DNA of 64,000 nucleotides from Psammoneis japonica (taxonomy: Eukaryota). Below are positions 14,680 to 40,300 of the stretch, in pieces. The stretch lies in assembly GCA_008632985.1 (NCBI GenBank), contig QPGO01000017.1:62001-126000 (forward strand). The letters are read 5' to 3'. The first letter of the stretch is position 1, and every line of letters starts with the position of its first letter. Below the pieces are notes generated by a model. It saw only the letters and a program-made list of their open reading frames with translations, was not told the origin of the DNA and did no database searches. The translations under genes were made by a program, and so were the position numbers.

Positions 14680-16543
14680 GACGGAGAAGGAAGCTCAAAG
14701 TACAGTACTTCTACTTTCATACCATAGAACATTAACATTACATCACAACATTTTCCCAAAATCGCACTCTAAGCTCACACGACCGACTAGTCATGCCACA
14801 ACATGCCAGCCTAGTAGCACATGTGTCAGCGAGACAGGAACAAAGCGAATATAGAATAACGACCTTTCTCGTCGCGGTAGATAGAGTGTCTGTGTTGCGT
14901 GTGGTGTTGTTGTGTTGTGTTGAGTGTGTTGAGCCTCTTTTTCTGTGTTTCAATGTGATCGTACTCAAGTGCCCTAAATGTTGATGACGCGTAAAACGTC
15001 ATGACTCGCCATAGATATGACGGGTACGCGTCATACAGTACTGTACTGTGCGTCGATCGCCAAAATTGTACACGGTACATGATGTGTTCATGCACACCGA
15101 TTTAGACCTCTCGTGCTTTTCCCCCGCCGAGCTTGAATCGGACTGACGGCATAAATCTTACAGTTAACACTTAGGTTGTTCCTCCCCGAAAGCAAAAAAG
15201 CGCCAAGTTCAACCGTTCTTATCGAAGCTGACATGCAAACATTGGGTGTTTGTGGCGGGAAAACTTGCACAGCTTCTACGCGTGTGCACTGTGGGCGATG
15301 CACTGAGCAGGTTTCTGTGTCTTTTCCACGTGTGAAATCGCTGTAATTGCCCGGATTTGCTTCCCTCACCCAGAAATGTTTCTAGACAAAACCCAACATC
15401 TGTTTTTAAGGTGCTGTTGTGCTTCCGCCCAGCAACTCCGGCAACAAGCTGACCCACACTCCTGGCGCACACATGCGCAGTGCAGCACGGTTGGAAGTTT
15501 TCGCACCTTGTTGTCGTGTTGTTGTTGCGTGCTTTCCAAGTGGCAGTCAATGAAACAATTGTTGGAGGACAAGCTGAGCCAATCAAACCCCAGAAAAACA
15601 GCACAAAGCACACGTCAAGTGCAGCAGAAGACGAGGACGTGCTGACATTTGTTGACAGAGGCTCTTGAAGAGACAAGTTTTAGCGACGAAGCAGTGCCAA
15701 AAAAGACATCACGTGCATCGCCCACGATGCACATCAGCGATTTTGGCAATTTTCTGAATTTTGCATGTGCATTGTGCATGATGCACACCGGGAGCGGGGT
15801 TGAGGATGAATGCTGCATTCCACCCAAAATTTGTGTTGCATCAAGGGACAAATGACGTGTGTTTCTATGTGGATTGTGCACAAGCGCACTGGGTGTTGAT
15901 GATGCGCACAACCTCATGACTTGCCACAGATGTGACAAGGTGCATGTCACAGTGCACATTGCCAAAATTGCATGCAGAGGTAAAGCGCTAAAGACAAAAA
16001 TTCCATCCCAAAATTTGATTTTGTTTTGTGAGGAATGAGTGTCAAAATTGACACTTCTCCGACCCGCATTCTCAAAATCTGGATTGTTTTTGCTGCATGA
16101 AGACAAACATTTTTTTTCAATCAAAGAAGAAGAGCCAATTCATGCAGTGCATGCATGCAGCCACGAGGACATGTGGGAATGGCAGCGCTCCTCATCTTGG
16201 CTGAGGTTGTGCCGCCTGAGACAGAAAGATGTTTGTTGGTGGCAGTTGATTTGATGGTTCTGAAGGGACAAGCCTGTGCCATCTTCCTGCATGGGATGGC
16301 GTCGGCTCATCTGGCTGACATTCTTTCTAAAATTTGTTTTTGTTTTGCATCACAAGGTGTCACACAAAGATTCGTGTGCTGTTGTTCATGGCCACAGCCC
16401 GCAGCACTGATTCTGCGATGAGTGGACTGAGCGGAGCAAAGATTTTCAGTGGCAACTGTTTTGTCAACATGTCGAGCATCACAGAGAAAGAAGCATCAAA
16501 GTGTCTCAAACACATGCGGGGGAAGAAGGTTTGGGAGGTCAAG

Positions 16544-16660
16544 CTGCATCTCACACCACCAACGTGTCCAAAGACATCACAAGATTGCCTCTAAATCACA
16601 AACCAGAAAGAGTTGGATTTCAAGTTGTGGTGTCTTTGGACATGATGGTGTGAGATGCAG
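16544..16660. repeat. Imperfect inverted repeat (36-39 bp arms, ~42 nt loop)
   Basis: CTGCATCTCACACCACCAACGTGTCCAAAGACATCACAA (16544-16582) pairs with TTGTGGTGTCTTTGGACATGATGGTGTGAGATGCAG (16625-16660). Confidence 0.8.
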
Positions 16661-17537
16661 TTTGGCTGCTGCAGTCAACGTCTGCATGTTTTGTTGGTCT
16701 CACAAAGAGACATCATCATCACCCAGCTCCTCCAAGTCATGCTTGGTGTCAAGTCCCAGGAAAATCAGTTCAAGAATTTCTGTGGGATTCACCCACTCTA
16801 CAGTGTTTGGGAGTGCAGAGGTCTGCACATGTGAAGACAATTTTTTGTCACATAGAAATCCATGCAATGAGTGCATGGCATGTTTCCATGTCCGACCTCC
16901 AACTCCCTGCCAGATTTCAAGATGCTTTTGGTTGATTCAAGCCGGCTTAAAATGCTTTTTGCAAAAAGATCAAAAAAACAACAAAATTCGTGCACCGCTG
17001 CGCAACTTGGCACCTGGCGTTGACGTCATGGCGATGCAACCAACAGCCAAAACTTGCACATGCAGACCTTGGCACTAAATTTTGTGCATGTAAAATGCAT
17101 CAGCTTCTGACCATTTTCTTTCTTCTGAATGCTGGGGAGTGGGGGCTCACTGCACCCAAACAAAAATCTTGCCACGGGTTTGGGTCGCGCACGAGTGTGG
17201 TGATTTTGCACATTTTCTGCACAATGACCTCTGGCGCCCAATTTGCACTGCTTGCTCTGTGTCAATCCTCTGTGCAGCATGCAAGTCTTTGCATGACACC
17301 TCAAGCAACTTCAAACTGGCATGGCAGGCACACTCCGGATGAGTGCACAGACCATCACTGCAGCGACAAGCCAACCATCTGTCGCAGAACATGACTCAAG
17401 CGGGACTCAAGTGATTGGGTCCCAGTCACGAGTGAAGGGTCGTGCCACCGATGACCACAGAAATCGGAGCCGACCACGAATGCCGCAATCGATCTTGAGG
17501 AACAAGATGTCAATGAATTGAATGGCTGAGGAGTGGC

Positions 17538-17579
17538 GATTTGACAAGATTGATTTGGCAAGATTGATTTGACAAGATT
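17538..17579. repeat. 14-bp tandem repeat, 3 copies
   Basis: GATTTGACAAGATT GATTTGGCAAGATT GATTTGACAAGATT. Confidence 0.85.
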
Positions 17580-19735
17580 GAAGTCCAGAAGAAGCAGAAA
17601 AGTGGATCATAATTTGGCGAGAGTGAGAAAAGTGAAGACTGTCAATTTTGGTTTTGTGTGCTGCTGATGAGGTGTCAGCGGCATCGGCATCTGGTTGTCC
17701 AACAACCATTGCTGAAACTGACACGGAGAACTTGCAAAAAAACTGCCGGAGCCAATGATGGCATTGACACGGCAGACAAGGTGTCTGGACATTGGTCATT
17801 TTTTGGACCATTGCAACAGAAGCTTCATCAGACCCTCATCAACACACAGTTGTGACCATCCATTCGGAGACGCACATTGTGATGCCACGCTGCATGCAGA
17901 CAATGCATCAACTGACCATTTTCCGGATTTTCAGCACCCACTGAGTTAAAGTCCAAGTTTGTAAAAAGGCAAGTAAATTGAAAATCAAAATGGTGCTGTC
18001 AATGTGTCGAAGGCTCTCACCAATTGTTGTCTCACTCAACTTTCTCTTGCCGTTGCAGCCACATCAGAGGCAGCAACACAGTGGTTTTCAATTTTCTGCG
18101 TGCAAATGTTGCCAATTGCAGCCAATTTTGTTGTGCCTTTAATTGTCATTTTCGCACATAAATTGAAACAACACACTCAACTTGTTAAATCCGTTTTATG
18201 CCGACATTTGTTGTCCATTTGTGTTTGATCATTCTTGACAATTTAATTTGATTTTCGCTTTCATTGGATTTTGTAAATTTCCATTTGATCTTAATGTTGC
18301 ATTTGCACTGAACCAACATCTTTGATTTTGGTTTTTAACATCTCCACATCATGCACACCCCACCGTGTTGACTGGCACATCCTCTGCTGTTCGGTGTGCT
18401 CCAGTCTCCCCCATGCACATTTCCAGTGTCATTTTTCCAGCACCTCCCGGAATTTCTGTGCATGTGTCTCTGCCCTGCTTCGGGCACTCATTCTACATGC
18501 GCAATCATCTGCGCAATTCATGACAGCACATCCTCTCCCCAAACTGCTTTCCACCTGAGCATGTGCTGTTGTCATCCACGCACCTTCTACACGAATCACA
18601 ACTGACCTCTTGCCATGGCGGTCAATGACTTTACCCCGTCTCACGACAAGGTCGACCCGATCCTTCCTTCCAATTTCCTGATGAATGTGATTTTGATGAC
18701 ATGGAATGTTTTGCCAATGGTTTTGGAATGGAGTTGTTTGGTCCCAAGCTCAAAAGCACAGCTTCAATGCGTGCATCCAAAAAGCAGTTTTTGGAATCAA
18801 CGAAATGGACTCCCTCTCCACAATTTCTCGCTCTTCCCTTCCTTTGCCACAAGCCAAAGTCACGTCGAATTCCACATGTCGCGGAAGTTGTCCGCGCCAA
18901 CAATGTCATCAGGAAAACTCTTGGATGCCCTGACGTTTGGTCTTGCATCAAGACTCGTGGTTGGTCCCTGAAGAAATCCCGCTCGCTGAAAGGTCAACAC
19001 TGCCTTCATTGTCGAAATTTGGACAAAGCTCTCTGTTTCTCCAAAACACCCAGAGAGACAGTTAAACAAGAAGAGCACCGTGTGAATCTTCACTGCAACA
19101 TCAAAGCCATGGTGGAATTTGTCCACACGATTGTTGCCAGTGACGACCCAAATGATCCCGTTTCCGGCAAGCCTTGTTTCTGGTTTCTAAAGGAAGACAA
19201 TCTCAAAAAAACTGATCAACGACCGTGCACAAGACCTTCACGGTGCATTTTTTGTCACCGAAATCGCAACGCGTCACGTTCAGCACAAACAAAATGACTT
19301 CGACTGCTGGTTCATGCAGATTTTTTGCCATGTCCAATCGCAAAAGGAGTGGCGCCTGTTCGTCAACAGCTTTCTTGTGCCATGCGATTCTAATGACCCG
19401 GGCTCTCAGGTGGGTGACATTGAGGAATGCCTCACTCCAGACCAAATCGGCAACACAAAGAACAAAGTGACAATGGCTGGTGATTCCCTTGCCCATCGGG
19501 AGGTGCACGAAGAAAAAACAAATTCCATGTTGAACCAAGAATTTGGGAAGCGCTGTCCCAAGGAACAACCCGGCACATGACCCAAGTGCAGCAAGTTGCT
19601 CACAATCCTTCGATGCAGAATGCGTGATCAGAGGGCTGACTGCATGGATGATGACAACAAACGAGAGCATCAATCCAAAACCAAACGCAAAATTGGGAGG
19701 ACCCGCAAAGACGGCACCTGTTTGTACGATGGTGC

Positions 19736-22700
19736 ATGCCCCCCCCCCCTCCTTGTTGCCGCATGTTTCTTGTGCATCCGTCTTCTCACATGTCCACATT
19801 TTATCCTGTTGTTCACATTCGCCGCGTAAGAGCCTTCCTTGACCGTCCCCAACAAGAAGCCAAAGACTGCATCACGCTCTGCCAAGGCACATCCTCCTGC
19901 GTCTGCCGACCTGCCGTCGTCACAGGAGGCAAACCGCACTCTCACCGCCGACCTTCCCACTCTGTCGGAAACCATGGATTCCCACAAACCTTCCTCTTCA
20001 CTGGAAGGTCCTCCCGCCCAGCTGCCAGCACCACGAAAGGCCCGGTTGCGTCGTCTCCCCCACTGGACCCCAATGACATGTCGTGGTTGGACAAGTCTAC
20101 ACTCCGACAGCGCTTTGACCCGCCCAAGTGTCGATCTGTTACCTCAGACGAAGTTGCTGCTCATGTGTCACGCCTTCACATCATTGACAAGGCAACTGAC
20201 ATGGAGCATGTGCTTCACCATTCCGCTGCCAACTTTTACCTTGCCGACAACCTCAGGGAAAACTGGCACATCTTCTCAAACAAAACCCCCATCAGCGACC
20301 CAACTGCCGCATCTCGTGTGAGAGCCGAGTGTCCTCCTGACCTCGATCACTGCTCAGACGAACTCTCTGTTGCCCGTCATGCAAACTCTCTTTACAAAGG
20401 GCACTTTGGTTGCCTTCGTGTGTGCATTCCTGCCCTTTTGCTTTTCATTTTGTTGAAGGGAGAGTCAGATCTCAAACGTGATGGATCGCTGGCAGTTGAC
20501 AAGGAAGACAGACAAAGGATCAAGATTGGCTGTGCTGGTCGGTCACATCATCCGAAGGAGCCTGGCTCTACAAAATCAGCCAAACCCAAGGCCACACACG
20601 GTCTTCATGTTTTTGATCCTGATGAAAACTTCGACGCGAAAGAGTCTTCCAAAATCAAGGCCATGGTCGCTGACATTCTTGACTCGATTCAGCTTTGCGA
20701 AAACGGCGTCGAGCTTTGGAAGCTTTGCAACCCCCCACCGTTCAACTGGTCGCTTTGGTGCGAAGAGCACTCCAAAACATTTTGTGATGAAATGGGTTGT
20801 CTACATTTCCGTCGTGAGGACGTCACCCTGCAGGGATTGTGCATGTCCCGTGGTCAATTTTGTGAAGGACACCGTGACGTAAAAAACTGCACCTGGCTTC
20901 GACATCGGAAAACAGCCGCTGGTTGTTTCTTTGTCATGGATGCCTTTGGCGATGCATGGTCCTTCAAGGCAGTCACCAACAGCAGAAGCCCCATTGGTCA
21001 ATGCTGCGACGACAAGTGCGACATGAACCCGATGTTGACTCGGATGCACCACAACCGAGCTCAGCTGGACTTTGCACTTAAAGACATGGATCTCCAACAT
21101 GATGGTCCCACCCATCCTGACTCTGTCCCAACCGCACGTGCATTCAAAAAACTCTCGCTGGATGACAGCCGGCCATGGAGCAATGTTGTCATCAGCGGAG
21201 GCGGTGTCATGGGAATTCCCCATGTGCACATGGATCGGCTTGAGTTCCCAACATTCCCTGTGAGGGACTTTCACCTGTCTGCCCCAAGCACAGTTCTGTT
21301 CCATTTCAAGAACATCATGTGCAGATCGGGGCCAGATCCGAAGCGAGTGATGCGGTTGGCCATTCATGCTGGTCATCTGACAGGGCATCACCAATTCTAC
21401 CATGTCGGTGACAAGTGCCTGCCTGAGCCATGTTGCCGAGGCATCGACCCATTTCTACAATTTGCCGATTGCTTGATGAGTGAGTTTGGCGTTTTGTTTG
21501 GTGATCCACAGGCAGGCAGGATTGGGCCAACCAATTTGACCTGCGACAAGTTTGCTGAGGTTTTCATTGACGACAGGCACATTGGCACCGCCAATGACCT
21601 GGTCAACCTGATGGTCAATGAAATCTGTGCAGTGCTGCTTTGGCTCAACGACAATGTCACCACCAATGAGTTCTGTTCCAATTAAATGGAACAACGCTGC
21701 AAGGCTGCCTGCGATGTTTGGGCACACAGGGGAGCAGATTTTAGCGAGATTTGTCTCATGTCAGTGCTGCATCGTCTCGCTCTGTCCGGTGTTGTGGTGA
21801 AGGACCACCCGCGTCTGAACGACATGGTGCATCCTGTGTTCAATTCTGGAGCGGCCGCTCAACTGGCCCACATTAACCCAGACGAACGACCGCTCATTCA
21901 CCAACGTATGTCATCAGAGACCGGGACCGAGGAGCACGGTTGGAACGGTGCAGAGCACAAACTCTGTGAGAACTCAGACAATCGCTGCACGTGCACATTC
22001 GATTGTGTGTTCCATGGTCCATGTTCCGGACAAGATCTCTTCACATTTTCTCCAACAGGCAAGCGATTGCGCAAACCCTGTGGATCAGTGGATTGTCAAA
22101 TTGTGGAGTGCGTTGACTCAGACCCTCACCTTTATGACCAAAAAGATGCGACGGTTCACGGTGGAATTGCGGCTGACCTTGGCGATGAATCCTTGTTGGG
22201 TGATGGAGTGGCTGCTGACAATGAATTAAACTCATTGTCCGGATCATCCGACCAGGATGAATCCTTGACGGAAGAATCCTCCGATGACGAAGACAGCGCG
22301 GGATTAATTTCTTGCGCATCGGACAACAACGAATCATTGGCACTGGACGGAGTTGTGGCAGACAACGAGCTTGGCTCCTTGCATGATGAGTCCTCCGACG
22401 ACGAAGAATGTGCGGGATCATTTTCTGGCGCATCGGACAAGAACGAATCATTGACTCTGGATGGAGTTGTGGCAGACAACGAACTCAGCTCCTCTGACGA
22501 CAAAGACAGTGTTTTGGAATGCGGCCCACCTGTCATTGCTCTCGAGGATGAGGAGAGTTTGGTCGACACCACCGACGACCGTGCAAATCCACCAGACCTT
22601 TCACAAAATCCCACTGTGGACGTGGACGAATGCATGGCGGCAACTTTGGCGCAAGTCTCACACCTTCTCCTGTGAGACTTGAGTGTGAATTGCTGTTGTG

Positions 22701-23873
22701 GCTCATGTGTGACTCTTTCTTCCCTGCTTTTTAACAATGCACAGTCGCGACGGCAGCGCCAAAATCCTGTGGCTGTGCATGACCAGGCCTGCAAATGCCG
22801 GACAGCTGTCCTTCGACGAGCTTTGTTCTGACCATGGGGTGCAGGCCGTGGCTAACACTCAGCATCGAAGAGACGAGGCCAGGTGTCAAGTTGCAGAAAA
22901 CCTGTGCACGAACACCAGCGTTGAGGCATGCACCGTCTCTCTGCAGGACGGAAGTGCCACGCACCACCTCAATTGCAACATTTCTGCAAAGGATTTTGTG
23001 TCTCGTGTGAAGTCACAATCCGGCGGTGAAATTGATTTTAAGAACAGTGGATTCATCCAGATTTGCATGGACTGTCACTGGATGCAACGCGGCGAGTGGA
23101 ACATGACGTCTTTTGGCAATCGCTTCTTCTGCGAAAACCCAAAAGAGATGATGCTGTCCTTGTTGCATCCCAAGTTTGAAAGGTGTCGCATCACAGTCCC
23201 GCGCAACCTGTGGTCCCTCTCCCAAGTCGTGCGCAACTTGGAGCACATAGAAGAATGCGTGCTGATGCAATTGATGACTCACGAAACGGCGTTGGACGAA
23301 ATTACGACACACCAAACGTTGCTCGAAATCGCAGAACAGGACAGGGGGGATTGGCCAGGAAAACCATCCGACCAGGAAGCCATGCATTCAGGAGTCACGG
23401 AACAGGAAATTCGGGAAACACTTCCAGAAACAGAAAGGGACAAGGTCTTAGACTTCACAAGAGAAGTCAAGAGTTGCGATCCGAAAAAATCCATGGAAGT
23501 TTTTTTTCTTTCTAAAGAAGCGTGCCAAATTGGCAGACCTGCCTCGACCCGTGGCCCCAGTGGTTTCTGGACCCGCACATCGATGAATGAAGCTGACTCC
23601 TTCAATTCTTGTGGCCTTGTCAACTGCACAAATTGGGTGAGTGCTGATGGTTTTGTTGTCTGTTTCCGAAATTGCACATGTTCCAACAATGGCATGCTCC
23701 AACACTGTTTTGAAATGCAAAGCAATGTTTGCAGTTGCCAATTGTTGATTGTGTCCATCAACCGCTGTTGTGAAATGCGATGGAAGAATTGGGTTGGAGA
23801 TCGTTTTTGGCACCGTGTTTCTGTTGGAGTGTGCATGGAGCATGGGTGCAAACTTCTGACCTGTGGTGATTGA
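19736..23873 (+). pseudogene. Large TE-borne gene relic (>1,300 codons) of unknown family; true start probably further upstream (frameshifted pieces from ~18.6 kb)
   Basis: ORFs 19736-21685 and 21686-22675 are contiguous in one frame across a single TAA. A GT-AG intron at 22672-22744 joins them in frame to ORF 22737-23873. Contains an HRDVKN motif at 20870 and three acidic DGV(A/V)ADNEL repeats at ~22200-22500. Confidence 0.6.
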
Positions 23874-24223
23874 TGTTCATGCATGATTCTGTGTGATTGA
23901 AAGTTTCAAATGCAATGATCCAGTCACATGTCAAAATCATCATCAACATTTAATTGTGCAATTCAAATTGAATGGTCGGTCACTTGAACTGAAACAAACA
24001 CAACCAAGCATGTGGTTTTCAAAGTCAAATGACAAAAATCACCAACCATGATGATTTGGGAAAGATTTGACAGTTGACAATGCACAAGGATGGGGAAGCA
24101 GTGTCACCATAAAGTGTTGGGAACAGGTTTGAAATTTTGCAAAGACAATTTTCCTCAGAAGAGCTTTTGCACTGCACGATTGCAGACAGGAGGAACTGAC
24201 AGTGACACAATGAGTCGAGGGCG

Positions 24224-25417
24224 ATGGGAAGGAGGAAGAAAGCAGCTAAGACGGATGCTGCAGGGGCAGAGGGAGCGCCCCACAGCCCGAGGCTTGTGGT
24301 GGCATTGCAGCAGATGGGGGCTGTGGTGGATCACAAGTCACCAAAGAGAGAGGTGGAAGAGGTGGCACGGAGAGAGCTGTTCCCAAAGGCGAAATTCCTT
24401 GTGAAGGCGGACGTGGCGAGTGGTGGCAAGGTGTCATGGCCAATGCGCAAAAACACAGCAGATGGCAAGTTCGGCAAGTGCGAATGGGCAGGATCATGGG
24501 AGGACTGGGCTAAAAAGAGCGTGCTCAATGCGATCAATGCAAAAAGAAACACCGTGTGTCAGACAACAATGAGGAGTGCGATGAGTGGCAAGTGAGGAGG
24601 AGTGGAGCATTTCCGAAGCGAGAATAGAAAGTGGTGCCACCAATGAATTGCTCATTTTTCTAAAGTCGTTGTGACAGAAAAACAAGCAGAGGAAATCCGA
24701 GAAAAAAAAAAGAAAGAAGCAAGGAAGAAGAGATCCGTAAAAAAGCGGAAACAGGACGAAGCTGACATTGAGGAAGAGTTCATTGCGACTTGGGAGGATG
24801 GGACAGTGGGCACAATTGTGATGGAGAAGTGAAAGGACAGAGAGGCGTGTGCATGGTTCTATGACAACGTCCTAAAATTCACGAAGAGCACTGCAATGTG
24901 GAGGAGGATGGCAGAGTCCGGAAGCACCAAGGCCACAGATCTGGCTGCTGCAAGCGACGAGGCACTGGCCCTGTTGATGATGGAAAACTGCTGGAAGGTT
25001 TGGGAGTGCAAGAAGATGCAGGAGTTAGATGAGGAAGGGAGCGAAGAGGAAAAACCAGCTACATTGCACATGGACCCGTCGCGACAGCGTGACTCTTGGA
25101 AGGATGAAGGAATGGTGCGCTTCAACGATTTGCCAAAGGAGGTAAAGGAAGACAGGGCGAGAGAGCACGGTGTGCATTTCAACACATGGCATGCAAACGA
25201 AAAGAAAAAGGAGAGCAAAGAAAAGGGAAAAAAGGCGAGAACCACTCAAGAGCCAGCGAAAACAGAGACGAGAACGCAGGCAACATTGGAGCTTTCCAGT
25301 GACGACGAGGAGGACGATGAAGCAACGGAGACACCAGGTGGCAGAGAAGATGAGGAGGAAGATGAAGCTGGCCAGGAAGACAGTGACAGAAGCAGAGGAA
25401 ATGAGAATCCAGTGTGA
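24224..25417 (+). pseudogene. TE-associated accessory gene relic (SDEALALLxxENxWxxW family); join(24224..24587,24678..25417) with one in-frame TGA
   Basis: Intron 24588-24677 (GCAAGT..ACAG) joins ORF 24224 in frame to ORF 24896. Single TGA at 24830-24832. Motifs RELFPKAKF, AINAKRN, AWFYDNVL, SDEALALLMMENCWKVW, SWKDEGMVRFNDL..DR, and an acidic tail. Confidence 0.65.
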
Positions 25418-26593
25418 GCAAATTGGAAATGTAGGACGACCAGGACTGTGGCATTGACTTGGCATTGATTGAGCGTCGATTGATGAAAAATGTTAAAAAG
25501 CTGTGGCGATGCGTCTTGGTTGATTGCAAAGAGTTGGCCAAATTCATTGTGTTCATCCCTTTAAATTGCAAAACTGTTGTGTGATGCGAAAATTGACAAT
25601 GATGTTGATTGTCAGCTGTTGCACTGAACGAAGGCACATGCTGAACGGGAAAAGAGGGGGACGTTTGCACAGTCAAGGTTTGTTCTCATGGACAAAAAGA
25701 TGTCTCTGTGGTCAAAAAAAATTAACTGTCACAGATTAAATTTTTTTACCAGCTGCACAGCTAATGAGGTTTGAAACTGTTAAAATTTTGTCTGTTGAAG
25801 AGACAAAAATCACAACGAAAAGACAAAGCAAGATCACTGTGTTGCGCCCTCTGATGCAACTCTTGTTGTCTTTCCTGGCATGAGCACATCGACGAATCCA
25901 ACGCAGTCATCACATCGTCAAACCCATTTGATCAATGGCATTGACCAGATGAATGTTTTTGAAGACTTTGACAAAGCAACTGCAGCGCATTCAGCCAACA
26001 AGTGTTCTTTCTGAATGGGAGAGAGTCGGGTGGATGATGAGAGTGAAAATGAAGGATGTGAAGTTGGTGCACAGTTCAAGAAAAAAGCAGTCAAACAATG
26101 TGGACAAAACACTCTGATGCTGTCATCATAGAATGACAAAGAACAGTGAATGGAGCTCCTCCCTGGCTGCTTGCACATGCTCCAGCTGGGACGGAAAGCT
26201 GTGTTTGTCACTTTTTCAATTTTTTCTTTTTTGGATTGACAAAGTGCGGATTTTTGCTCTTATTCGCATCTAAATGTCTTCCGTTTGAGCAGAAATTCAT
26301 TGCTTCTGCGAAAACGAAGGAAACGAAAGGGAAATCAGGTTACATTGAATCAATCCCGAATCATCGAGTCCCGCATACTGTAGTGTCCAGACAGTCAGTC
26401 AGACAGTTATTCCCTGCCTCCATTCCTTGCTGGCCACGACACACCCAAAGCGAAACTTCTGCTCGCCAAAATCACAGCCAGAAAGAAGCGAGGTGAAAGC
26501 ATCCGAAGATCGCGTAGTGCTCCACATCACGGCAAATACCGGTACGTAGACGACTACCGCAACAAATACTGTAGCATCAAAGCAGCAACAACC

Positions 26594-28320: not shown

Positions 28321-31300
28321 TCACGGCGAAGCATTTCCTCCGCGCAAGTTACGATTCGGTGGTCTCTGCAAGAATTTCGTTCCGCCATTGTCAATCAAGA
28401 ATTGGCGGAGTGCAAGAGAGATACCTTGACAGTCTGTTGGCGCCAAACTCAGACTCGGCATGGTACTCGGGACCATGCTTGGCTCCGGACTAGCGCTCGG
28501 GGAGGAACTAGGACTGAGACTGGGAGCAGGACTAGATGACGGAGCACGTGACGGAGCGTCACTGGGGGCAGGACTTTCGGATGGCATGCCACTAGGAGCA
28601 TCACTTGGGGCGGGGCTGCGGCTTGGCATACTGCTTGGAGCACGACTTGGAGCGGGACTGGAACTAGGGCTCGTGCTTGGGAATTCACTGGGAGCTGGGC
28701 TGGCGGACGGAGCGAAACTGACACTCGGAGCCGCGCTGGGAGAAGTACTTGGTGCCGGACTCGAACTTGGAGCTTGAGATGGCATCAATGTGGGAGCTCG
28801 GGTTGGCATTGGTCTCGTGATTATCTCCTCTTCGTCTGTGTCTTCGCAGGGTTCACGGCTCGATTTGGTTATCGCTCCCACTATGGCCTTGATAGTGTAC
28901 GTATTGGCAATGCAAACATCAATTTCAAATGGAACCGTTGCATTTGTAATGTCACCACCCAAAAGCATTGTTTCAATTTGATCCAGAACACTGGTTATTG
29001 TCTCCGCGAATGGGTCGTCCCTTGTTAAGATATGATTAGCTTTGGTGATCTGCAGAGCTGCCGTGCCATTGTTTTCAATTTCCATTATTGAATTTACAAT
29101 GTAAAGGCATTGGTTTGGGTCGTTGTCAGGATCACCGTCGCAGCCCTTGAGTGTCAGGCTACCAAGTTGGTCGTTCAGCATTAGGTTGGCAGTATCTGTC
29201 ACAAACTGCACTTGCTGGTACACAGAGTCTACATCGGTTGCTTCTTTAATGAAACAAACGACAACGCTTGGGACGTTGATTAGTTCAATCGTCTCGCCGG
29301 GACTAACGGTTTCGTTGAAGATTACTCCATTTGGTCCAGTGCACGTGATAAGGACATCGTCGAAGATACCTGGTGGCATGACATCAGGGAAATCTTGACA
29401 TTCACAGTGTTTGCCTTGGGAGTTCACAGTTTCGTTACAGGGTCGCCACCCGTATTTGAAGGTCAAGTTTGGATATCCTTGGCATTCAGGATCGGGCATC
29501 GGAATATCGTTGCAGTCTGTTCTGTTTTCATCTTGGGCTTCGCATCTCAAATCAACCTACAAAAGTACGAGTTAGTAATGAAGGTTGTTCAAAACGAGAG
29601 AGAAAGAGTCAAAGAAGAACGAACGTACCTCGATATCGCAGAACTCTCGTGCGGTTGGTTCTTGACTCGGGGCGTCGCTAGGAACCGGGCTGCTACTTGG
29701 TGAAGAAGAAGGAGCTACACTCGGCGCTGGACTTGCACTCGGAATCGCGGATGGACTGCTGCTAGGTTCTGGGCTGTTGCTCGGTGTCGCGGATGGCGAA
29801 TTGCTCGGAGCAGGGCTGGCACTAGGTGATCCGCTTGGCACATTACTTGGAGCTGGACTGCTACTTGGAGCTGCACTGGGTGAAGCACTCGGTGCTGGAC
29901 TTGAACTTGGAGGCGGCGTCGTGTGCGTTGGTACATTACTCGGTGCTTGACTTGCGCTGGGAGCATTACTAGGCGCGGAACTCGGAGCAGAACTTGCGCT
30001 AGGGGATCCACTTGGTGCATCGCTAGGAGCTGGACTGCTACTTGGTGATCTACTTGGAGCATCGCTTGGTGCCGGACTCAAACTTGGAGGCGGTGTTGCG
30101 CGTGATGGTGCGTTACTCGGTGCTTGACTTGCGCTGGGAGCATTGCTCGGCGCAGAACTCGGGACAGGACTTGCGCTTGGTGATTCACTCGGCGAATCAC
30201 TTGGCGCCGGGCTACTACTTGGAGCTGCACTGGGAGACTCACTCGGTGCAGGACTACGACTTGGTGGTGGAGTCGTGTGAGTTGGCTCGTTACTCGGTGC
30301 TGGACTTGCGCTGGGAACATTGCTAGGCACAGAACTCGGGGCAGGACTTGCGCTTGGTGACTCACTCGGCGAATCACTTGGCGCCGGGCTACTACTTGGA
30401 GCTGCACTGGGAGACTCACTCGGTGCAGGACTACGACTTGGTGGTGGAGTCGTGTGAGTTGGCTCGTTACTCGGTGCTGGACTTGCGCTAGGAGCATTGC
30501 TAGGCACAGAACTCGGGGCAGGACTTGCGCTTGGTGACTCACTTGGCGAATCACTTGGCGCAGGACTATTACTTGGAGATACACTGGGAGTCTCACTTGG
30601 TGCAGGACTACGACTCGGTGGTGGGGTCGTGTGAGTTGGTTCGTTGCTCGGAGCCGGGCTAGCTGATGGTTTTTGACTTGGAGTTGAGCTTGGCGCTGGA
30701 CTTTTGCTCGGAGAGTCGCTTGGTGTCGAGCTGGGGGCAGGGCTTGTACTCGGTGTTCTACTCGGAGCTTCACTTGGAGCAGGACTGCTTGATGGAGCAC
30801 TCGTTGGAGGAGCTGGGGGTATACGTGGCATAACTGTCGGTGTAGTACTCGGAGCTGGACTGCTGCTTGGTTCTGCTGATGGCAAGTCACTGGGCGCTGG
30901 ACTGGTACTTGGTTGAGATGATGGTGTTGAACTTGGTGCCGGGCTGCTGCTTGGGGCTGAACTGGGTGTTTCGCTGGGAGCCGGGCTCACACTTGGTGGC
31001 GGCGTCGTATGCGTTGGTGAGGTGCTTGGGGCAGAGCTTGCGGTAGGCGATGCACTCGGCGAATCACTCGGTGCAGGACTGCTACTAGGTCGAGAGGATG
31101 GTGATGAACTTGGTGCCGGGCTACTACTTGGGGCTGAACTGGGTGTTTCGCTGGGAGCCGGGCTCACACTTGGTGGCGGCGTCGTATGGGTTGGTGAGGT
31201 GCTTGGGACAGAGCTTGCGGTAGGCGATGCACTCGGCGAATCACTCGGTGCAGGACTGCTACTAGGTCGAGAGGATGGTGATGAGCTTGGTGCCGGGCTG

Positions 31301-34300
31301 CTACTTGGGGCTGAACTGGGTGTTTCGCTGGGAGCCGGGCTCACACTTGGTGGTGGCGTCGTATGCGTTGGTGAGGTGCTTGGGGCAAGGCTTGCGGTAG
31401 GCGATGCACTCGGTGAATCACTCGGCGCTGGACTGCTACTAGGTTGATAAGATGGTGATGCACTCGGCAAAAAACTCTTGCTCGGAATTGCAGTTATGTG
31501 CGTCGGCGAGTTGCTCGGAGCAGGGCTAGCAGAAGGTTCTTGACTCGGAGTTGCGCTTGGTCCTGGACTTGCGCTAGGAGAAGCGCTTGGTGTCGAACTG
31601 GGAGCAGGGCTTGTACTCGGTGTTCTACTCGGAGCTTCACTTGGAACAGGACTGCTTGATGGAGCACTCGTTGGAGGAGCTGGGGGTATACGTGGCATAA
31701 CTGTCGGTGTAGTGCTTGGAGCTGGACTGCTGCTTGGTTCTGCTGATGGCAAGTCACTAGGCGCTGGGCTGCTACTGGGCTCTACCGAAGGCGACACACT
31801 CGGAGCTGGACTGCCACTCGGGGAACTACTGGGAGACTCGCTGGGTGCAGGGCTGCGACTCGGCTGATTTGTCGAGTGTGATGGTCTACCACTCGGCACC
31901 TGACTTGCACTTGGTGCATGGGAAGGAGACTCACTTGGAACCGGGCTACTACTTGGTGCCTGGGACGGTGCCGGCGTAGGCTCTGGAGTTACTTTCTCAT
32001 CTGTCTCGAACATGTCCGTGTCCTCGTCTTCGCATGTGATGCCAGTTGAAACCGTCTCACCCTTGACATACGCCGTGACTATATACTTTGCGTCGACACA
32101 GATATCGATTTCATACGAGACGTTAACCATTCGAGTGTCCCCTGCGATTATCACTGATGGGTCAATCTCTCCAAGAAAGTTTGTGACTGATTGCGTAACA
32201 TTATCTTTCGTCACAGTGTGCAGAGCCTCCGTGATGTTGATATTTGTGGGTCCGTCGTTGGTGATTAAGACTTTCGACAAGACCATTTGAAGACAGTTGT
32301 TCGAATTGGTGCCGTCGTCACAGTTCTCGAGTGTCAGGCTGCCAAACTCATCCTTGAGCATTAAATCGGCATCGTCGGTTAAGAATTGTATCCTCTGATA
32401 CACAAAGTCCAGGTCGTCGGCTTTTGCGATGAAACAGACAACAATGCCTTGTGCTCCGCTGATATCGATTTTGTCCCCGCTGCTCACCGTACCACTGAAC
32501 AGAGTGTCATTGGTGGGACTTGCGTCGGAGCAGCTAATGTGGACAGTTTCATCTCCGGCAGGAGGCGTTGCGTTTTTCTCAAGATACACATCCCTGCATT
32601 CACAATTTGCACCTTGTGAATGTGTCGAGTTTTCACAAGGTCTCCAGTTGTACGTAAACGTCAGATTGGAGTATCCTCTGCATTGACAATCCGGATGTGG
32701 AATTTCCCCGCATTGGGTGCCGTTGTTATCTACGCACTCCAACAATTCAACCTGTGTGGCCGCGTTTCGGGAGCAGAACATACATTATTGAGCTGGGGAC
32801 AATACCATAGCACATGCAGTAAAACAAAGAAACGTTGCAAAGCTTACTTCTAGGTCGCAAACATCTTGTGTTGGCGCCGTTGATGGTGACTGACTTGGAG
32901 AGGGACTCTTGCTTGGAGCCGTGCTAGGCGATAAGCTTGGGGCCGGGCTTGCGCTTGGAGCTGCACTGGGAGTTTCGCTGGGAGCAGGACTCACACTTGG
33001 TGGCGGCGTCGTATCCGTTGGCGAGTTGCTTGGGGCGGGGCTTGCACTGGGCTGTTCACTCGGCGAGTTACTTGGCGCCGGACTATTACTTGGAGATACA
33101 CTGGGAGTCTCACTCGGTGCAGGACTACGACTTGGTGGTGGGGTCGTGTGAGTTGGTTCGTTGCTCGGAGCCGGGCTAGCTGATGGTTCTTGACTTGGAG
33201 TTGAGCTTGGTGCTGGACTTTTGCTGGGAGAGTCGCTTGGTGCCGAGCTGGGGACAGGGCTTGTACTCGGTGTTCTACTCGGAGCTTCACTTGGAGCAGG
33301 ACTGCTTGATGGAGCACTCGTTGGAGGAGCTGGGGGTATACGTGGCATAACTGTCGGTGTAGTACTAGGAGCTGGACTGCTGCTTGGTTTTGCTGATGGC
33401 AAGTCACTGGGCGCTGGACTGGTACTAGGTTGAGATGATGGTGTTGAACTTGGTGCCGGGCTGCTGCTTGGGGCTGAACTGGGTGTTTCGCTGGGAGCCG
33501 GGCTCAAACTTGGTGGCGGCGTCGTATGCGTTGGTGAGGTGCTTGGAGCAGAGCTTGCGGTAGGCGATGCACTCGGCGAATCACTCGGTGCAGGACTGCT
33601 ACTAGGTCGAGAGGATGGTGATGAACTTGGTGCCGGGCTGCTACTTGGGGCTGAACTGGGTGTTTCGCTGGGAGCCGGGCTCACACTTGGTGGCGGCGTC
33701 GTATGCGTTGGTGAGGTGCTTGGGGCAGAGCTTGCGGTAGGCGATGCACTCGGCGAATCACTCGGTGCAGGACTGCTACTAGGTCGAGAGGATGGTGATG
33801 AGCTTGGTGCCGGGCTGCTACTTGGGGCTGAACTGGGTGTTTCGCTGGGAGCCGGGCTCACACTTGGTGGTGGCGTCGTATGCGTTGGTGAGGTGCTTGG
33901 GGCAAGGCTTGCGGTAGGCGATGTACTCGGCGAATCACTCGGCGCTGGACTGCTACTAGGTTGATAAGATGGTGATGCACTCGGCAAAAAACTCTTGCTC
34001 GGAATTGCAGTTATGTGCGTCGGCGAGTTGCTCGGAGCAGGGCTAGCAGAAGGTTCTTGACTCGGAGTTGCGCTTGGTCCTGGACTTGCGCTAGGAGAAG
34101 CGCTTGGTGTCGAACTGGGAGCAGGGCTTGTACTTGGTGTTCTACTCGGAGCTTCACTTGGAACAGGACTGCTTGATGGAGCACTCGTTGGAGGAGCTGG
34201 GGGTATACGTGGCATAACTGTCGGTGTAGTGCTTGGAGCTGGACTGCTGCTTGGTTCTGCTGATGGCAAGTCACTAGGCGCTGGGCTGCTACTGGGCTCT

Positions 34301-37300
34301 ACCGAAGGCGACACACTTGGAGCTGAACTACCACTCGGGGAACTACTGGGAGACTCGCTGGGTGCAGGGCTGCGACTCGGCTGATTTGTCGAGTGTGATG
34401 GTCTACCACTCGGCACCTGACTTGCACTTGGTGCGTGGGAAGGAGATTCACTTGGAACCGGGCTACTACTTGGTGCCTGGGACGGTGCCGGCGTAGGCTC
34501 TGGAGTTACTTTCTCATCTGTCTCGAACATGTCCGTGTCCTCGTCTTCGCATGTGATGCCAGTTGAAACCGTCTCACCCTTGACATACGCCGTGACTATA
34601 TACTTTGCGTCGACACAGATATCGATTTCATACGAGACGTTAACCATTCGAGTGTCCCCTGCGATTATCACTGATGGGTCAATCTCTCCAAGAAAGTTTG
34701 TGACTGATTGCGTAACATTATCTTTCGTCACAGTGTGCAGAGCCTCCGTGATGTTGATATTTGTGGGTCCGTCGTTGGTGATTAAGACTTTCGACAAGAC
34801 CATTTGAAGACAGTTGTTCGAATTGGTGCCGTCGTCACAGTTCTCGAGTGTCAGGCTGCCAAACTCATCCTTGAGCATCAAATCGGCATCGTCGGTTAAG
34901 AATTGTATCCTCTGATACACAAAGTCCAGGTCGTCGGCTTTTGCGATGAAACAGACAACAATGCCTTGTGCTCCGCTGATATCGATTTTGTCCCCGCTGC
35001 TCACCGTACCACTGAACAGAGTGTCATTGGTGGGACTTGCGTCGGAGCAGCTAATGTGGACAGTTTCATCTCCGGCAGGAGGCGTTGCGTTTTTCTCAAG
35101 ATACACATCCCTGCATTCACAATTTGCACCTTGTGAATGTGTCGAGTTTTCACAAGGTCTCCAGTTGTACGTAAACGTCAGATTGGAGTATCCTCTGCAT
35201 TGACAATCCGGATGTGGAATTTCCCCGCATTGGGTGCCGTTGTTATCTACGCACTCCAACAATTCAACCTGTGTGGCCGCGTTTCGGGAGCAGAACATAC
35301 ATTAATGAGCTGGGTACAATACCATGGCACATGCAGTAAAACAAAGAAACGTTGCAAAGCTTACTTCTAGGTCGCAAACATCTTGTGTTGGCGCCGTTGA
35401 TGGTGACTGACTAGGAGAGGGACTCTTACTTGGAGCCGTGCTAGGCGATAAGCTTGGGGCCGGGCTTACGCTTGGGGATGCACTGGGAGATTCGCTGGGA
35501 GCAGGACTCACACTTGGTGGCGGCGTCGTATCCGTTGGCAAGTTGCTTGGAGCGGGGCTTGCACTGGGCTGTTCACTCGGCGAGTTACTTGGCGCCGGAC
35601 TATTACTTGGAGATACACTGGGAGTCTCACTCGGTGCAGGACTACGACTTGGTGGTGGGGTCGTGTGAGTTGGTTCGTTGCTCGGAGCCGGGCTAGTTGA
35701 TGGTTCTTGACTTGGAGTTGAGCTTGGTGCTGGACTTTTGCTGGGAGAGTCGCTTGGTGCCGAGCTGGGGACAGGGCTTGTACTCGGTGTTCTACTCGGA
35801 GCTTCACTTGGAGCAGGACTGCTTGATGGAGCACTCGTTGGAGGAGCTGGGGGTATACGTGGCATAACTGTCGGTGTAGTACTAGGAGCTGGACTGCTGC
35901 TTGGTTTTGCTGATGGGAAGTCACTGGGCGCTGGACTGGTACTAGGTTGAGATGACGGTGTTGAGCTTGGTGCCGGGCTGCTGCTTGGGGCTGAACTGGG
36001 TGTTTCGCTGGGAGCCGGGCTCACACTTGGTGGCGGCGTCGTATGCGTTGGTGAGGTGCTTGGGGCAGAGCTTGCGGTAGGCGATGCACTCGGCGAATCA
36101 CTTGGTGCAGGACTGCTACTAGGTCGAGAGGATGGTGAAGGACTTGGTGCCGGGCTGCTACTTGGGGCTGAACTGGGTGTTTCGCTGGGAGCCGGGCTCA
36201 CACTTGGTGGTGGCGTCGTATGCGTTGGTGAGGTGCTTGGGGCAAGGCTTGCGGTAGGCGATGCACTCGGCGAATCACTCGGTGCAGGACTGCTACTAGG
36301 TTGATAAGATGGTGATGCACTCGGCAAAAAACTCTTGCTCGGAATTGCAGTTATGTGCGTCGGCGAGTTGCTCGGAGCAGGGCTAGCAGAAGGTTCTTGA
36401 CTCGGAGTTGCGCTTGGTCCTGGACTTGCGCTAGGAGAAGCGCTTGGTGTCGAACTGGGGGCAGGGCTTGTACTTGGTGTTCTACTCGGAGCTTCACTTG
36501 GAACAGGACTGCTTGATGGAGCACTCGTTGGAGGAGCTGGGGGTGTACGTGGCATAACTGTCGGTGTAGTGCTTGGAGCTGGACTGCTGCTTGGTTCTGC
36601 TGATGGCAAGTCACTAGGCGCTGGGCTGCTACTGGGCTCTACCGAAGGCGACACACTTGGAGCTGGACTGCCACTCGGGGAACTACTGGGAGACTCGCTG
36701 GGTGCAGGGCTGCGACTCGGCTGATTTGTCGAGTGTGATGGTCTACCACTCGGCACCTGACTTGCACTTGGTGCATGGGAAGGAGACTCACTTGGAACCG
36801 GGCTGCTACTTGGTGCATGAGACGGTGCCGGCGTAGGCTTTGGAGTTACTTTCTCATCTGTCTCGAACATGTCCGTGTCCTCGTCTTCGCATGTGATGCC
36901 AGTTGAAACCGTCTCACCCTTGACATACGCCGTGACTAAATACTTTGCGTCGACACAGATATCGATTTCATACGAGACGTTAACCATTCGAGTGTCCCCT
37001 GCGATTATCACTGATGGGTCAATCTCTCCAAGAAAGTTTGTGACTGATTGCGTAACATTATCTTTCGTCACAGTGTGCAGAGCCTCCGTGATGTTGATAT
37101 TTGTGGGTCCGTCGTTGGTGATTAAGACTTTCGACAAGACCATTTGAAGACAGTTGTTCGAATTGGTGCCGTCGTCACAGTTCTCGAGTGTCAGGCTGCC
37201 AAACTCATCCTTGAGCATTAAATCGGCATCGTCGGTTAAGAATTGTATCCTCTGATACACAAAGTCCAGGTCGTCGGCTTTTGCGATGAAACAGACAACA

Positions 37301-40300
37301 ATGCTTGTGCTCCGCTGATATCGATTTTGTCCCCGCTGCTCACCGTACCACTGAACAGAGTGTCATTGGTGGGACTTGCGTCGGAGCAGCTAATGTGGAC
37401 AGTTTCATCTCCGGCAGGAGGCGTTGCGTTTTTCTCAAGATACACATCCCTGCATTCACAATTTGCACCTTGTGAATGTGTCGAGTTTTCACAAGGTCTC
37501 CAGCTGTACGTAAACGTCAGATTGGAGTATCCTCTGCATTGACAATCCGGATGTGGAATTTCCCCGCATTGGGTGCCGTTGTTATCTACGCACTCCAACA
37601 ATTCAACCTGTGTGGCCGCGTTTCGGGAGCAGAACATACATTAATGAGCTGGGTACAATACCATGGCACATGCAGTAAAACAAGAAACGTTGCAAAGCTT
37701 ACTTCTAGGTCGCAAACATCTTGTGTTGGCGCCGTTGATGGTGACTGACTAGGAGAGGGACTCTTACTTGGAGCCGTGCTAGGCGATAAGCTTGGGGCCG
37801 GGCTTACGCTTGGGGATGCACTGGGAGATTCGCTGGGAGCAGGACTCACACTTGGTGGCGGCGTCGTATCCGTTGGCAAGTTGCTTGGGGCGGGGCTTGC
37901 ACTGGGCTGTTCACTCGGCGAGTTACTTGGCGCCGGACTATTACTTGGAGATACACTGGGAGTCTCACTCGGTGTAGGACTACGACTTGGTGGTGGAGTC
38001 GTGTGAGTTGGTTCGTTGCTCGGAGCCGGGCTAGCTGATGGTTCTTGACTTGGAGTTGAGCTTGGTGCTGGACTTTTGCTGGGAGAGTCGCTTGGTGCCG
38101 AGCTGGGGGCAGGGCTTGTACTCGGTGTTCTACTCGGAGCTTTACTTGGAGCAGGACTGCTTGATGGAGCACTCGTTGGAGGAGCTGGGGGTATACGTGG
38201 CATAACTGTCGGTGTAGTACTAGGAGCTGGACTGCTGCTTGGTTTTGCTGATGGCATGTCACTGGGTGCAGGGCTGCTACTGGGTTCTACCGAAGGCGAT
38301 GCGCTTGGCGCTGGACTGCCACTCGGGGAACTACTCGGAGACTTACTCGGTGCTGGGCTGCTACTCGGTGGAGTAGTGGAGTGTGATGGACTACCACTGG
38401 GGGCCAGACTTGCACTTGGTAGCTCAGAGGGCGTGGTACTTGGTACTGGACTCGCACTTGGCGATTGTGAAGGTACTGGCGTTGGAGACGGTGTCGGTAT
38501 GGCATCTGTGACGATCACATATCCGTCTTCGGCCGTACACGTAAATTCATTAGAGACTGTTTCAGCTTCGAGTTCAGCGCTCACGATGTAATTTGCTTCA
38601 ATGCAAACATCAATTGTGTATGGAACTTCAATCGTGCGCATTTCACCAGCCACCATTTCCGTCGGATCAATCAAATCAAGAAAACTTGTGAGACTGGAAG
38701 AGCCGAGGGGGGCTTGCGTCACATTTTGCACCGCTTTGGTAACGTTCAGTGTTGTACTTCCGGCATTAGTTATGTCAATGACGGATTTCACCTGTTGAAG
38801 GCATTGTTTCGAGTCTCCTTGGCCATTGCTGCCGTTCTCCAGGACCAAGCTTCCAAACTCGTCTTTGAGCAAGAAGTTTTCACTGTTTGTCACGAACTTA
38901 ATCGTTTGATACACTACATCCTGATCCATGTCGCGGAATATGATGCACTCGACACTTTCGACAGTTCCATTCAACTCAAATATATCGCCACTGTCAACTG
39001 TGCTGTTATAGAGTGTCTCATTGCTCAAACCCTTACATGTTATGAAGACACTTTCGTTAGCAGCTGGAGGATCGACACCATTGAGATCATATACGTCGAT
39101 ACACTCGCTGGAATCCCCTTGAGAGTTTACAGCTTCAGCGCAGGACTTCCAATAATATGAAAATGTGAAGCTAGTGTATCCGCTGACCTGGGGGTCTGGG
39201 TGCTCAATGTCAGAGCACGCAGTACTTCCGTCATCGCTGAGACATTCCATTTCAACCTGTAACAATGACAACAAGCGAGAGACACGCGTCAGCCTTTGCA
39301 AAATTTCACATTTTATGCTAACAGTTTTTGAATATACTTACATCAAGTGTGCAGTTGATTGGCTGAGATGGAGCTGTACTTGGATAAGAGCTTGGCGCTG
39401 GGCTACTACTGGGAGTCGTACTGGGTGTGCCGCTTGGTACAGGACTACGACTTGGTGGTGGTGTCGTGTGAGTTGGTTCGTTGCTCGGAGCCGGGCTAGC
39501 TGATGGTTCTTGACTCGGTAACGAGCTTGGAGCTGGACTGCTACTTGGAATGGCGCTAGGTGTCTGGCTGGGTGCAGGACTTGCGCTCGGCTCGGAACTT
39601 GGCGTTTCACTTGGAGCAGGACTGCTTGATGGAACACTAGTCGGAGGAGCAGGTGGAGCCAGAGGTAGCTCTGTTGGTGTTAACGATGGAAGTGACGTTG
39701 GCAAAGGCGTCGGGTCTGGCGTAGGTGGTCCTGTTGGCTCCGGAGTTGGTCGCGCCGTCGGAACGGGAGTAGGAGGAGATGACGGTGGCAAAGTAGGAAG
39801 AGGCGACGGAGGCAGGGTAGGTGGGCCACTCGGCTCTGGAGTAGGCAAAGGTGTCGGGTTTGGTGTAGGATTAGGTGTAGGTGGTCCTGTAGGCTCCGGA
39901 GTTGGCCGCACTGTCGGAACGGGTGTAGGAGGAGTTGACGGCGGTGGAGTGGGGGGGGCACTTGGTTGTGGAGTAGGCAGAGGCGTCGGGTTTGGTGTAG
40001 GATTAGGTGTAGGTGGTCCTGTTGGCTCTGGAGTGGGCCGCACCGTCGGAACGGGTGTAGGAGGAGTTGACGGAGGCGGGGTAGGTGGGCCACTCGGTTC
40101 TGGAGTAGGCAAAGGTGTCGGGTTTGGTGTAGGATTTGGAGTAGGTGGTCCTGTTGGCTCCGGAGTTGGCCGCACCGTCGGAACGGGTGTAGGAGGAGTT
40201 GACGGCGGTGGAGTAGGTGGGCCACTCGGTTGTGGAGTAGGAGGAGGTGTCGGGTTTGGTGTAGGATTAGGTGTAGGTGGTCCTGTTGGCTCTGGAGTGG

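Follow-up and report, generated by a model that had tools for sequence, protein, structure and literature searches.

The stretch analysed here, 64,000 nucleotides of the diatom Psammoneis japonica (assembly GCA_008632985.1, contig QPGO01000017.1, positions 62,001 to 126,000 of the forward strand; hereafter the window), contains at positions 19736-23873 a relic gene in which TpA dinucleotides have become rare while many CpG dinucleotides persist. Herein we place this relic gene within a DNA transposon of PlavakaB type (Table 1), and from alignments of its sister copies we argue that its TpA and CpG have been worn down by two mutation processes, which probably act at different speeds in the same silenced transposon domains.

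The ends of the element are common to its copies and form an inverted repeat of 24 bp (CATCAGAGG..CCTCTGATG). The start CATCAGAGG was seen in 10 of the 11 left ends listed, whilst one old copy (L069, copy O016) begins with TGTCAGAGG, a swap of CA to TG that possibly went through a TA or CG intermediate. Target duplications of 2 bp were found in six of the seven copies with both ends (CA, CT, TT, AT, TT, CA; one mismatch), and public-run contigs in which 18045 is joined to 25857 contain CA once, the arrangement expected of an empty site. PlavakaB, of the CMCT clade, is defined by the termini CATCA..TGATG and target duplications of 2-3 bp (PMC12730594). The present element shares these termini and the 2-bp duplication, and its full-length copies carry what is probably a Plavaka-like transposase. 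It differs from the elements described there, which are known from fungi, in residing in a diatom, in its unnamed cargo ORFs (open reading frames) without a TET/JBP match and in the lack of a transposase in the window copy. Taking termini, target duplications, empty site and transposase-bearing sister copies together, we read the relic gene as cargo of a non-autonomous PlavakaB copy. With 20000-21500 as query, the 91-Mb genome yielded 46 matches, 40 of the 69 candidates having been scored. The wider TpA-poor block around the element (15030-18061; 26377-26386) ends in a CACTA-like terminus ..ACTGTAGTG, which suggests that the Plavaka copy was inserted into an older element, and two empty-site variants are present in the public run.

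Table 1 Features of the window that bear on the analysis (o/e, observed-to-expected ratio)
Feature	Position	Strand	Evidence or remark
PlavakaB-type DNA transposon, internally deleted, without transposase	18062..25856	+	repeat matches, shared ends, empty-site contigs, composition
Left terminal inverted repeat, start CATCAGAGG	18062..18085	+	CA target duplication (18060-18061) directly before
Right terminal inverted repeat, end TGATG	25833..25856	-	21/24 bases match left repeat; CA (25857-25858) directly after
Large cargo ORF, first piece (unnamed family)	19655..21685	+	4 Tyr in 676 codons; ends at in-frame stop
Large cargo ORF, second in-frame piece, acidic repeat tail	21686..22675	+	1 Tyr
Second cargo ORF relic	22713..23873	+	0 Tyr in 386 codons; spans deletion joint
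Deletion joint	23775..23776	.	other copies hold 0.85 kb to >5 kb here, with a putative Plavaka-like transposase gene on the minus strand
Third cargo ORF region, broken, near right end	24206..25417	+	no Pfam family
TpA-poor domain enclosing nested element	~15250..26250	.	sharp edges against host genes; 250-bp TA/CG counts, 1-kb o/e profile
Control: tandem array of host DUF7467 genes	29572..38400	-	98% identical over 3.3 kb; TpA o/e 0.68; 104/107 TA common to two units
Comparison block, both TpA (0.04) and CpG (0.18) gone, end state	57000..64000	.	mosaic; 1-kb o/e profile

In two other copies the large cargo ORF runs uninterrupted over 953 and 966 codons; it has 198 relatives at E<=0.001. A Pfam scan of 29 of these relatives gave no informative named family (27 had no match, the remaining two only low-complexity ones under the cut-off), a word-index search retrieved 0 of 5515 candidates, an Atlas protein search returned no usable match, and the AlphaFold model was unusable (pLDDT, the predicted local distance difference test, of 28). 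An H-M-D motif and the existence of TET-bearing PlavakaB elements prompted us to consider the ORF as a TET/JBP dioxygenase. We rejected this candidate, as the column of the motif's His once held Tyr and now varies between His and Cys from copy to copy, and as no TET/JBP match of Pfam was found in the window ORFs, the sister-copy ORFs or the 29 relatives. The segment absent at 23775 of the window copy holds a minus-strand ORF in other copies. Homologues of the transposase ORF (36-42% identity) carry PF18759 in two of six cases, at 28.4 bits (over) and 24.6 bits (under the cut-off of 26.3), whereas the mutated sister-copy transposase ORF itself gave no direct Pfam match in any of its five pieces; conversion of Tyr to His or Cys conceals transposases from Pfam.

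Across 19736-23873 we counted 26 TpA (o/e 0.11) against ~130 expected at the o/e of 0.53 found in the five host-gene stretches of the window that served as reference (Poisson P 1e-28), and 205 CpG (o/e 0.75) against 281 expected at the host-gene o/e of 1.02 (P 1e-6). The same pattern holds for the whole element (TpA o/e 0.12, CpG o/e 0.70). The preliminary description of this DNA had stressed two CpG-rich patches, 19820-20160 and 22140-22640 (o/e 0.79 and 1.04 by our count), a count of about four Tyr in more than 1,300 codons and, by comparison, a loss of both dinucleotides at 57-64 kb. The rarity of TpA, the Tyr shortage (5 per 1,364 codons in the three frames, 4+1+0, where host genes have 2.4%) and the double loss at 57-64 kb were all confirmed, and CpG in the interval is well above the level of that block. 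Its heading, that TpA had been lost without CpG loss, went too far, since CpG is reduced rather than intact. In the alignment with 10 sister copies, 75 of 267 former CG sites (28%) of the interval already read TG or CA, 77 of 100 former TA sites are lost, and nearly all losses of either kind lead to TG or CA. The best matches elsewhere to the 57-64 kb block are short pieces at 73-87% identity, with no full-length copies for dating, and the block is therefore taken to be old. Elsewhere in the window, an integrase-bearing retrotransposon relic (49203-52895; TpA 0.05-0.10, CpG 0.24-0.46) represents an intermediate stage, and 500 bp between two host genes (10251-10750) have neither TA nor CG, being a small, old insertion that has reached the end state.

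We then asked of the alignments whether the missing TA steps had been present at insertion. They cover 5.7 kb of two young Plavaka subfamilies, A (11 copies, including that of the window) and B (9 copies). Columns with only CA and TG and a minor count of at least 2 were scored as former TA, singleton swaps being set aside (30 in B, 44 in A); columns in which all copies changed the same way are missed, so that TA loss is if anything underestimated. The pyrimidine-purine columns formed two classes, one with CG mostly kept and scattered TG or CA, the other divided between CA and TG at intermediate frequency, some columns still holding TA, and only 1/98 and 2/71 TA-bearing columns also held CG. 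In all, 208 and 179 columns per 5.7 kb traced to TA, and in these the copies had gone to TG or CA independently of one another. Of the swap columns at codon positions 1-2, 31 of 31 that could be resolved (2 could not) had a pyrimidine as third base, as had all 12 with TA still visible, because an open frame requires TAY (Y, pyrimidine); for CG columns at the same positions the count was 40 of 75 (Fisher P 3e-9 against swap and TA-bearing columns together). Where 15 outside homologues have Tyr, the copies of the cargo ORF have His in 25%, Cys in 24% and Tyr in 5% of 5,943 pairs, as compared with Trp, which stays Trp in 66%, and the conserved Tyr columns of the transposase are His/Cys mosaics across copies. 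By both the codon and the homologue test, the lost TA steps were real Tyr codons. Between copies of B, the direction taken at lost TA agreed at 0.44-0.61, near chance, so that each copy lost its TAs separately and after insertion; one copy pair with an identical flank, i.e., a duplication, agreed at 0.85.

Such independence is difficult to reconcile with the view that no local process acts and that the element instead arrived TpA-poor (through an inherited composition, through codon bias or through losses in a single ancestor) or owes its composition to an assembly artefact. It is true that TpA o/e was at most 0.15 in all 30 copies examined, none of them intact, and that a young copia-type family began with only 39 TA in 2.0 kb before its current losses. 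For the bulk of the loss, however, this explanation is refuted by the columns that trace to TA and by the Tyr ancestry, and the letters recur in contigs of a public run, perhaps of this very sample, 697 of 1658 being at least 99% alike; we consider it hardly credible.

The alignments also allowed the speeds of the two losses to be compared. The window copy has lost 143 of its 179 former TA and 121 of its 374 former CG. Pooled losses were 1413/1826 TA and 619/2742 CG in B and 1465/1745 TA and 1253/3627 CG in A, with per-copy TA:CG rate ratios of 4.2-8.0 and 3.4-5.4, respectively; per copy, ~77-84% of TA were lost, against a 0.4-0.5% change at other A. The young copia-type family, of which we sampled 7 of at least 40 copies (98-99% identical), had changed at 137/272 TA, 42/1057 CG and 31/11354 other sites. 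This gives a TA:CG rate ratio of ~17, a TA rate ~250 times that of other sites (k 0.70 vs 0.0027) and a CG decay already ~15 times background. The ratio falls with age, since resistant contexts remain. The duplicated copy pair shares ~97/176 TA losses but ~34/368 CG losses (same minus opposite direction). TA loss is thus ~4-17 times faster than CG loss, with both processes starting early, and of the earlier suggestion that TpA erosion was "faster or earlier" the first part stands (3.4-8 per copy, ~17 in the younger family) whilst the second is not needed, given the CG decay in the youngest family. That family (L085:200-2200, L103:200-2200) has at least 40 copies at 97-99% identity, and its active lineage may already be TA-poor.

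If TpA loss were a by-product of the deamination of 5-methylcytosine (5mC), the two kinds of change should be coupled event by event. Strand sharing of neighbouring TA-TA, CG-CG and TA-CG changes, assessed in 30 distance bins over the two subfamilies, was not above that of within-column shuffles; two of the 30 bins, both in B, came to z 2.9, with no counterpart in A. A small excess of sites "both mutated" (~0.003, z up to 6.6) was flat with distance and reflects differences between copies, and TA retention was nearly constant with CpG distance (0.18-0.27 in B, 0.14-0.27 in A). These data support the view that TA and CG loss are separate chemically and event by event, in agreement with the earlier proposal that TpA loss would not be a by-product of 5mC deamination.

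An indirect version of the by-product idea holds that T:G mismatches left by 5mC deamination call in error-prone patch repair, with a polymerase-eta-like enzyme and its WA motif (W, A or T), which mutates nearby TA. It would fit the strict spatial nesting of CpG loss within TpA loss described below, as well as three details, namely the one bin in which CG and TA changes share a strand (B, 11-30 bp, 0.545 vs 0.496, z 2.9), the slightly lower retention of TA within 4 bp of a CpG in B (0.18 vs 0.23-0.27) and, in A, the slightly higher retention of TA at distances beyond 20 bp (0.27 of 90). The bin is one of 30 and was not repeated in A (z -0.8), however, and TA-TA strand agreement stayed at 0.43-0.51 at all distances. 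Moreover, AA was not raised above CA or GA, no transversion occurred in 604 TA opportunities in B, and the per-site TA rate is 4-17 times that of CG. This alternative is already largely refuted, and we rate it very unlikely.

Separate events do not preclude a shared location. We sampled 387 1-kb windows from 39 fixed 10-kb stretches of the genome, which are not a random sample. TpA o/e was below 0.2 in 144 of them (~37%), with a bimodal distribution. All 90 windows with CpG below 0.5 fell among these 144, 39 of which keep CpG of at least 0.6, and none of the 219 windows with TpA of at least 0.35 had CpG below 0.5. CpG loss is spatially nested inside TpA loss, the relation being L-shaped and not proportional, and both act in the same domains. 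Tight proportionality, which the preliminary description had named as evidence against its reading, was thus not seen in this sample, but its statement that the two processes are uncoupled was overstated and, in space, is not supported.

Since all affected DNA that we examined is repeated or transposon-like, one may ask whether repeat pairing itself triggers the TA changes, as it does C>T changes in the repeat-induced point mutation (RIP) of fungi. Mutation of both strands and the several C5 methyltransferases in the genome are compatible with this idea. RIP leaves one-strand runs, and none were seen here. It further resembles the present pattern in being a transition-only dinucleotide mutation of transposon DNA that destroys coding capacity, but it runs in the opposite direction, making TpA from CpA by C>T, whereas TpA is destroyed here. 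The tandem host array keeps its TA in spite of near identity (Table 1), which argues against repetition alone as the trigger, although this is one array, and selection or recent origin could explain it. Furthermore, the hypermutated region of Bigelowiella natans is single-copy (bioRxiv 10.64898/2026.01.13.699255). We judge a RIP-like trigger to be quite unlikely. The array lies within 28321-39337 (minus strand) and has internal 177-bp repeats in units that are 96-98% identical.

The sequence context of the losses points to the kind of activity involved. TA was kept at 0.44 (B) and 0.33 (A) of sites with no TAY strand, at 0.22 and 0.19 with one and at 0.07 and 0.02 with two. ATAT was kept in 0/125 and 0/152 cases (B and A) and TTAA in 71/123 and 77/181, and at mixed sites the TAY strand was the mutated one by 468:279 and 299:207. 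Outside TpA, singleton A>G changes exceeded non-CpG G>A changes both in B (66/16317 vs 12/14031; 7 copies, 2 dropped for high transversions) and in A (66/12567 vs 30/10566; 7 copies, 4 dropped), and were ~4 times as frequent at NAY as at NAR (N, any base; R, purine) in both subfamilies (P 3e-7, 7e-7). TG>TA amounted to only 0.19-0.24%. The signature looks like one A-directed activity with a strong preference for a 5' T and a weaker one for a 3' pyrimidine. Three other sources were rejected, i.e., a polymerase-eta WA signature (AA not raised), a TA photoproduct of ultraviolet light, which gives transversions, absent at TA in B, and N6-methyladenine at ApT (NAC is mutated as often as NAT). TTAA is also the commonest surviving TA context in the element region 16001-25500 (34/132), and it is almost absent from host coding DNA (2420-9692; 4 counts on both strands, against 50 for ATAT).

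The data above show the spectrum, direction, post-insertion timing, relative rates, context, co-location and lack of strand coupling, and suggest the following scheme. The first process is a TpA-specific A:T to G:C change that hits either strand at random, at single sites and in each copy after insertion, giving TG or CA, with a preference for T-A-pyrimidine and a weak leak to other A-pyrimidine steps; probably a TadA/ADAT-like enzyme deaminates adenine in the DNA, and the resulting hypoxanthine is read as G. The second turns CpG into TG or CA 4-17 times more slowly, presumably through deamination of 5mCpG of the DNMT5 type. The same silent chromatin could aim both, possibly in genome defence. 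On the whole we regard this combination, of TadA/ADAT-like adenine deamination at TpA and slower 5mCpG deamination in the same silenced transposon domains, as fairly probable. It would explain why TpA is near its floor while CpG stands at 0.7 in this young-to-middle-aged insertion, TpA loss outpacing CpG decay, and why the old 57-64 kb block has lost both. CG changes to TG and CA occur on both strands and rise with age, as decay of 5mCpG entails, and intact C5 methyltransferase genes as well as TadA/ADAT-like genes occur in the genome; the latter, which we label TadA-like (L112) and ADAT2-like (L115) by sequence reading, are universal. C5 methyltransferase domains also lie within TpA-stripped DNA (L124, L125, L126; G000 C301, C297), with 0-1 Tyr per frame, and are probably transposon-borne and themselves mutated. 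One open frame (L114:313-1785, minus strand) joins a zinc-deaminase-like stretch to a 2OG-Fe(II) dioxygenase, a putative fusion.

Several points weigh against this scheme. Some copy pairs of subfamily A agree in direction at 0.60-0.67, where part of the TA loss may be shared by descent. Within subfamilies, the per-copy losses of TA and CG are only weakly correlated (rho 0.35 and 0.33, neither significant). The nine PF00383 matches, five of them scanned, look like housekeeping enzymes and yielded no dedicated DNA deaminase. Strand-coordinated runs, expected of a processive enzyme on single-stranded DNA, were absent from the 30 bins in both subfamilies. Both 5mC and a common targeting mark enter the scheme as inferences. 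CA is not favoured here (CA>CG 0.60% vs AA>AG 0.61%), though TadA editors accept it. Finally, sequence cannot tell an attack on A from an attack on its partner T.

This last point leaves room for a thymine-centred process, in which a modifying enzyme, e.g., an oxidase of TET/JBP type, alters the T of R-T-A so that the altered base pairs with G and yields T>C, and 5mCpG and TpA are both methyl-pyrimidine palindromes. Oxidised thymines do mispair with G, and the double-stranded spectrum would be the same as for attack on A. Fungal PlavakaB elements can, in addition, carry TET/JBP genes (PMC12730594). The T of TpG, however, was not mutated above background (0.60%), and no TET/JBP match was obtained for the cargo ORF, whose H-x-D look-alike is a former Tyr column, or in the Pfam scans of its 29 relatives, the genome as a whole not having been searched for such a gene. 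We hold a thymine target to be unlikely and retain adenine deamination as the preferred reading.

A process of this kind has been observed directly in the rhizarian B. natans, where some, but not all, mutation-accumulation lines revealed TpA>TpG/CpA hypermutation of integrated viral DNA, with a de novo rate ~1000 times that of the background (Mettrop et al., bioRxiv 10.64898/2026.01.13.699255). The P. japonica pattern agrees with that report in its both-strand A:T>G:C transitions restricted to TpA, in striking silent foreign DNA and sparing host genes (TpA 0.11 vs 0.53; silence being presumed here) and in its sharp local limits, and the report likewise describes TpA-poor coding sequences enriched for transposon domains and proposes an ADAT2-like deaminase. 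In B. natans the effect is far from saturation (TpA rho 0.45), in contrast to the diatom transposon copies, near saturation over the ~37% of sampled windows. The main text of the same report mentions neither "CpG" nor "diatom" and does not cover the rate relative to CpG decay, the TAY preference or the non-TpA leak. Engineered TadA adenine base editors favour YAY over YAR for A>G in DNA (PMC10188366, PMC12528748), as does the activity seen here; they differ in being engineered, guided by Cas9 and tolerant of CA. DNMT5a has been shown to methylate CG in transposons of the diatom Phaeodactylum (PMC9998398), and the decay of CpG so methylated accounts for the slow change of CG to TG or CA and its restriction to transposons, with methylation presumed in our case, but cannot remove TpA. 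A literature search, with most subscription papers outside its reach, found no published report of TpA loss in diatoms. TpA hypermutation itself is known from B. natans; the contribution of the present locus is the multi-copy measurement, i.e., the relative rates, per-copy independence, absence of strand coupling, nesting, TAY rule, non-TpA leak and failure of a ratio clock.

A broader proposal, which we advance tentatively and with slightly less than even confidence, is that diatoms, and perhaps SAR protists (stramenopiles, alveolates and rhizarians) widely, possess a natural, chromatin-guided DNA adenine editor. It would be recruited to newly silenced transposons and strip them of TpA, beginning with TAY, while background divergence was still well under one percent, so that their Tyr codons would be lost long before methyl-CpG decay matters. 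Such a genome defence would run opposite to RIP, would not depend on the pairing of repeats, would be addressed to the same places as DNMT5 methylation and would favour transposon lineages poor in TA. If true, roughly one third of the genome of a diatom has been rewritten by a natural A-to-G mutator of DNA, and a process measured in one rhizarian extends to the transposons of a stramenopile. The numbers make the enzyme question testable, as a candidate would have to act at 4-17 times CpG decay, prefer TAY, leave isolated hits in the same domains and spare tandem host genes.

The two losses also bear on the dating of insertions, for which the CpG:TpA ratio had been proposed as a relative clock. 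We used the 30 best of 46 copies, with the transversion distance to the nearest neighbour as age. This distance correlated with CpG o/e (Spearman -0.71, P 1e-5) and with TpA o/e (-0.63, TpA range 0.01-0.15), but not with the ratio (0.03, P 0.89). The ratio has to rise at first and fall later, and each copy contributes only 1-12 TA to it. Dating in two stages does work, by the fraction of TA lost for very young copies and by CpG o/e for older ones; inside a single subfamily, neither of the two losses follows transversions. Transposon ages taken from divergence come out too high in this genome if columns of TA, CG, CA and TG are left unmasked.

Other genes were noted in the window. A minus-strand nuclear gene (730-2043) has a MinC C-terminal domain, of a family of bacterial or plastid division proteins, and a PAPS-reductase gene lies at 11177-12799, whose close homologues with a readable organism name come from diatoms wherever that name is complete. 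Between them, at 2420-9692, a frame of 1,490 codons combines ACBP, DegT-like aminotransferase, fatty acyl-CoA reductase (NAD_binding_4) and acyltransferase domains and adjoins a FAD-linked oxidase; we take the two to resemble a reductase-acyltransferase fusion beside an alkyl-DHAP synthase, presumably an ether-lipid gene pair.

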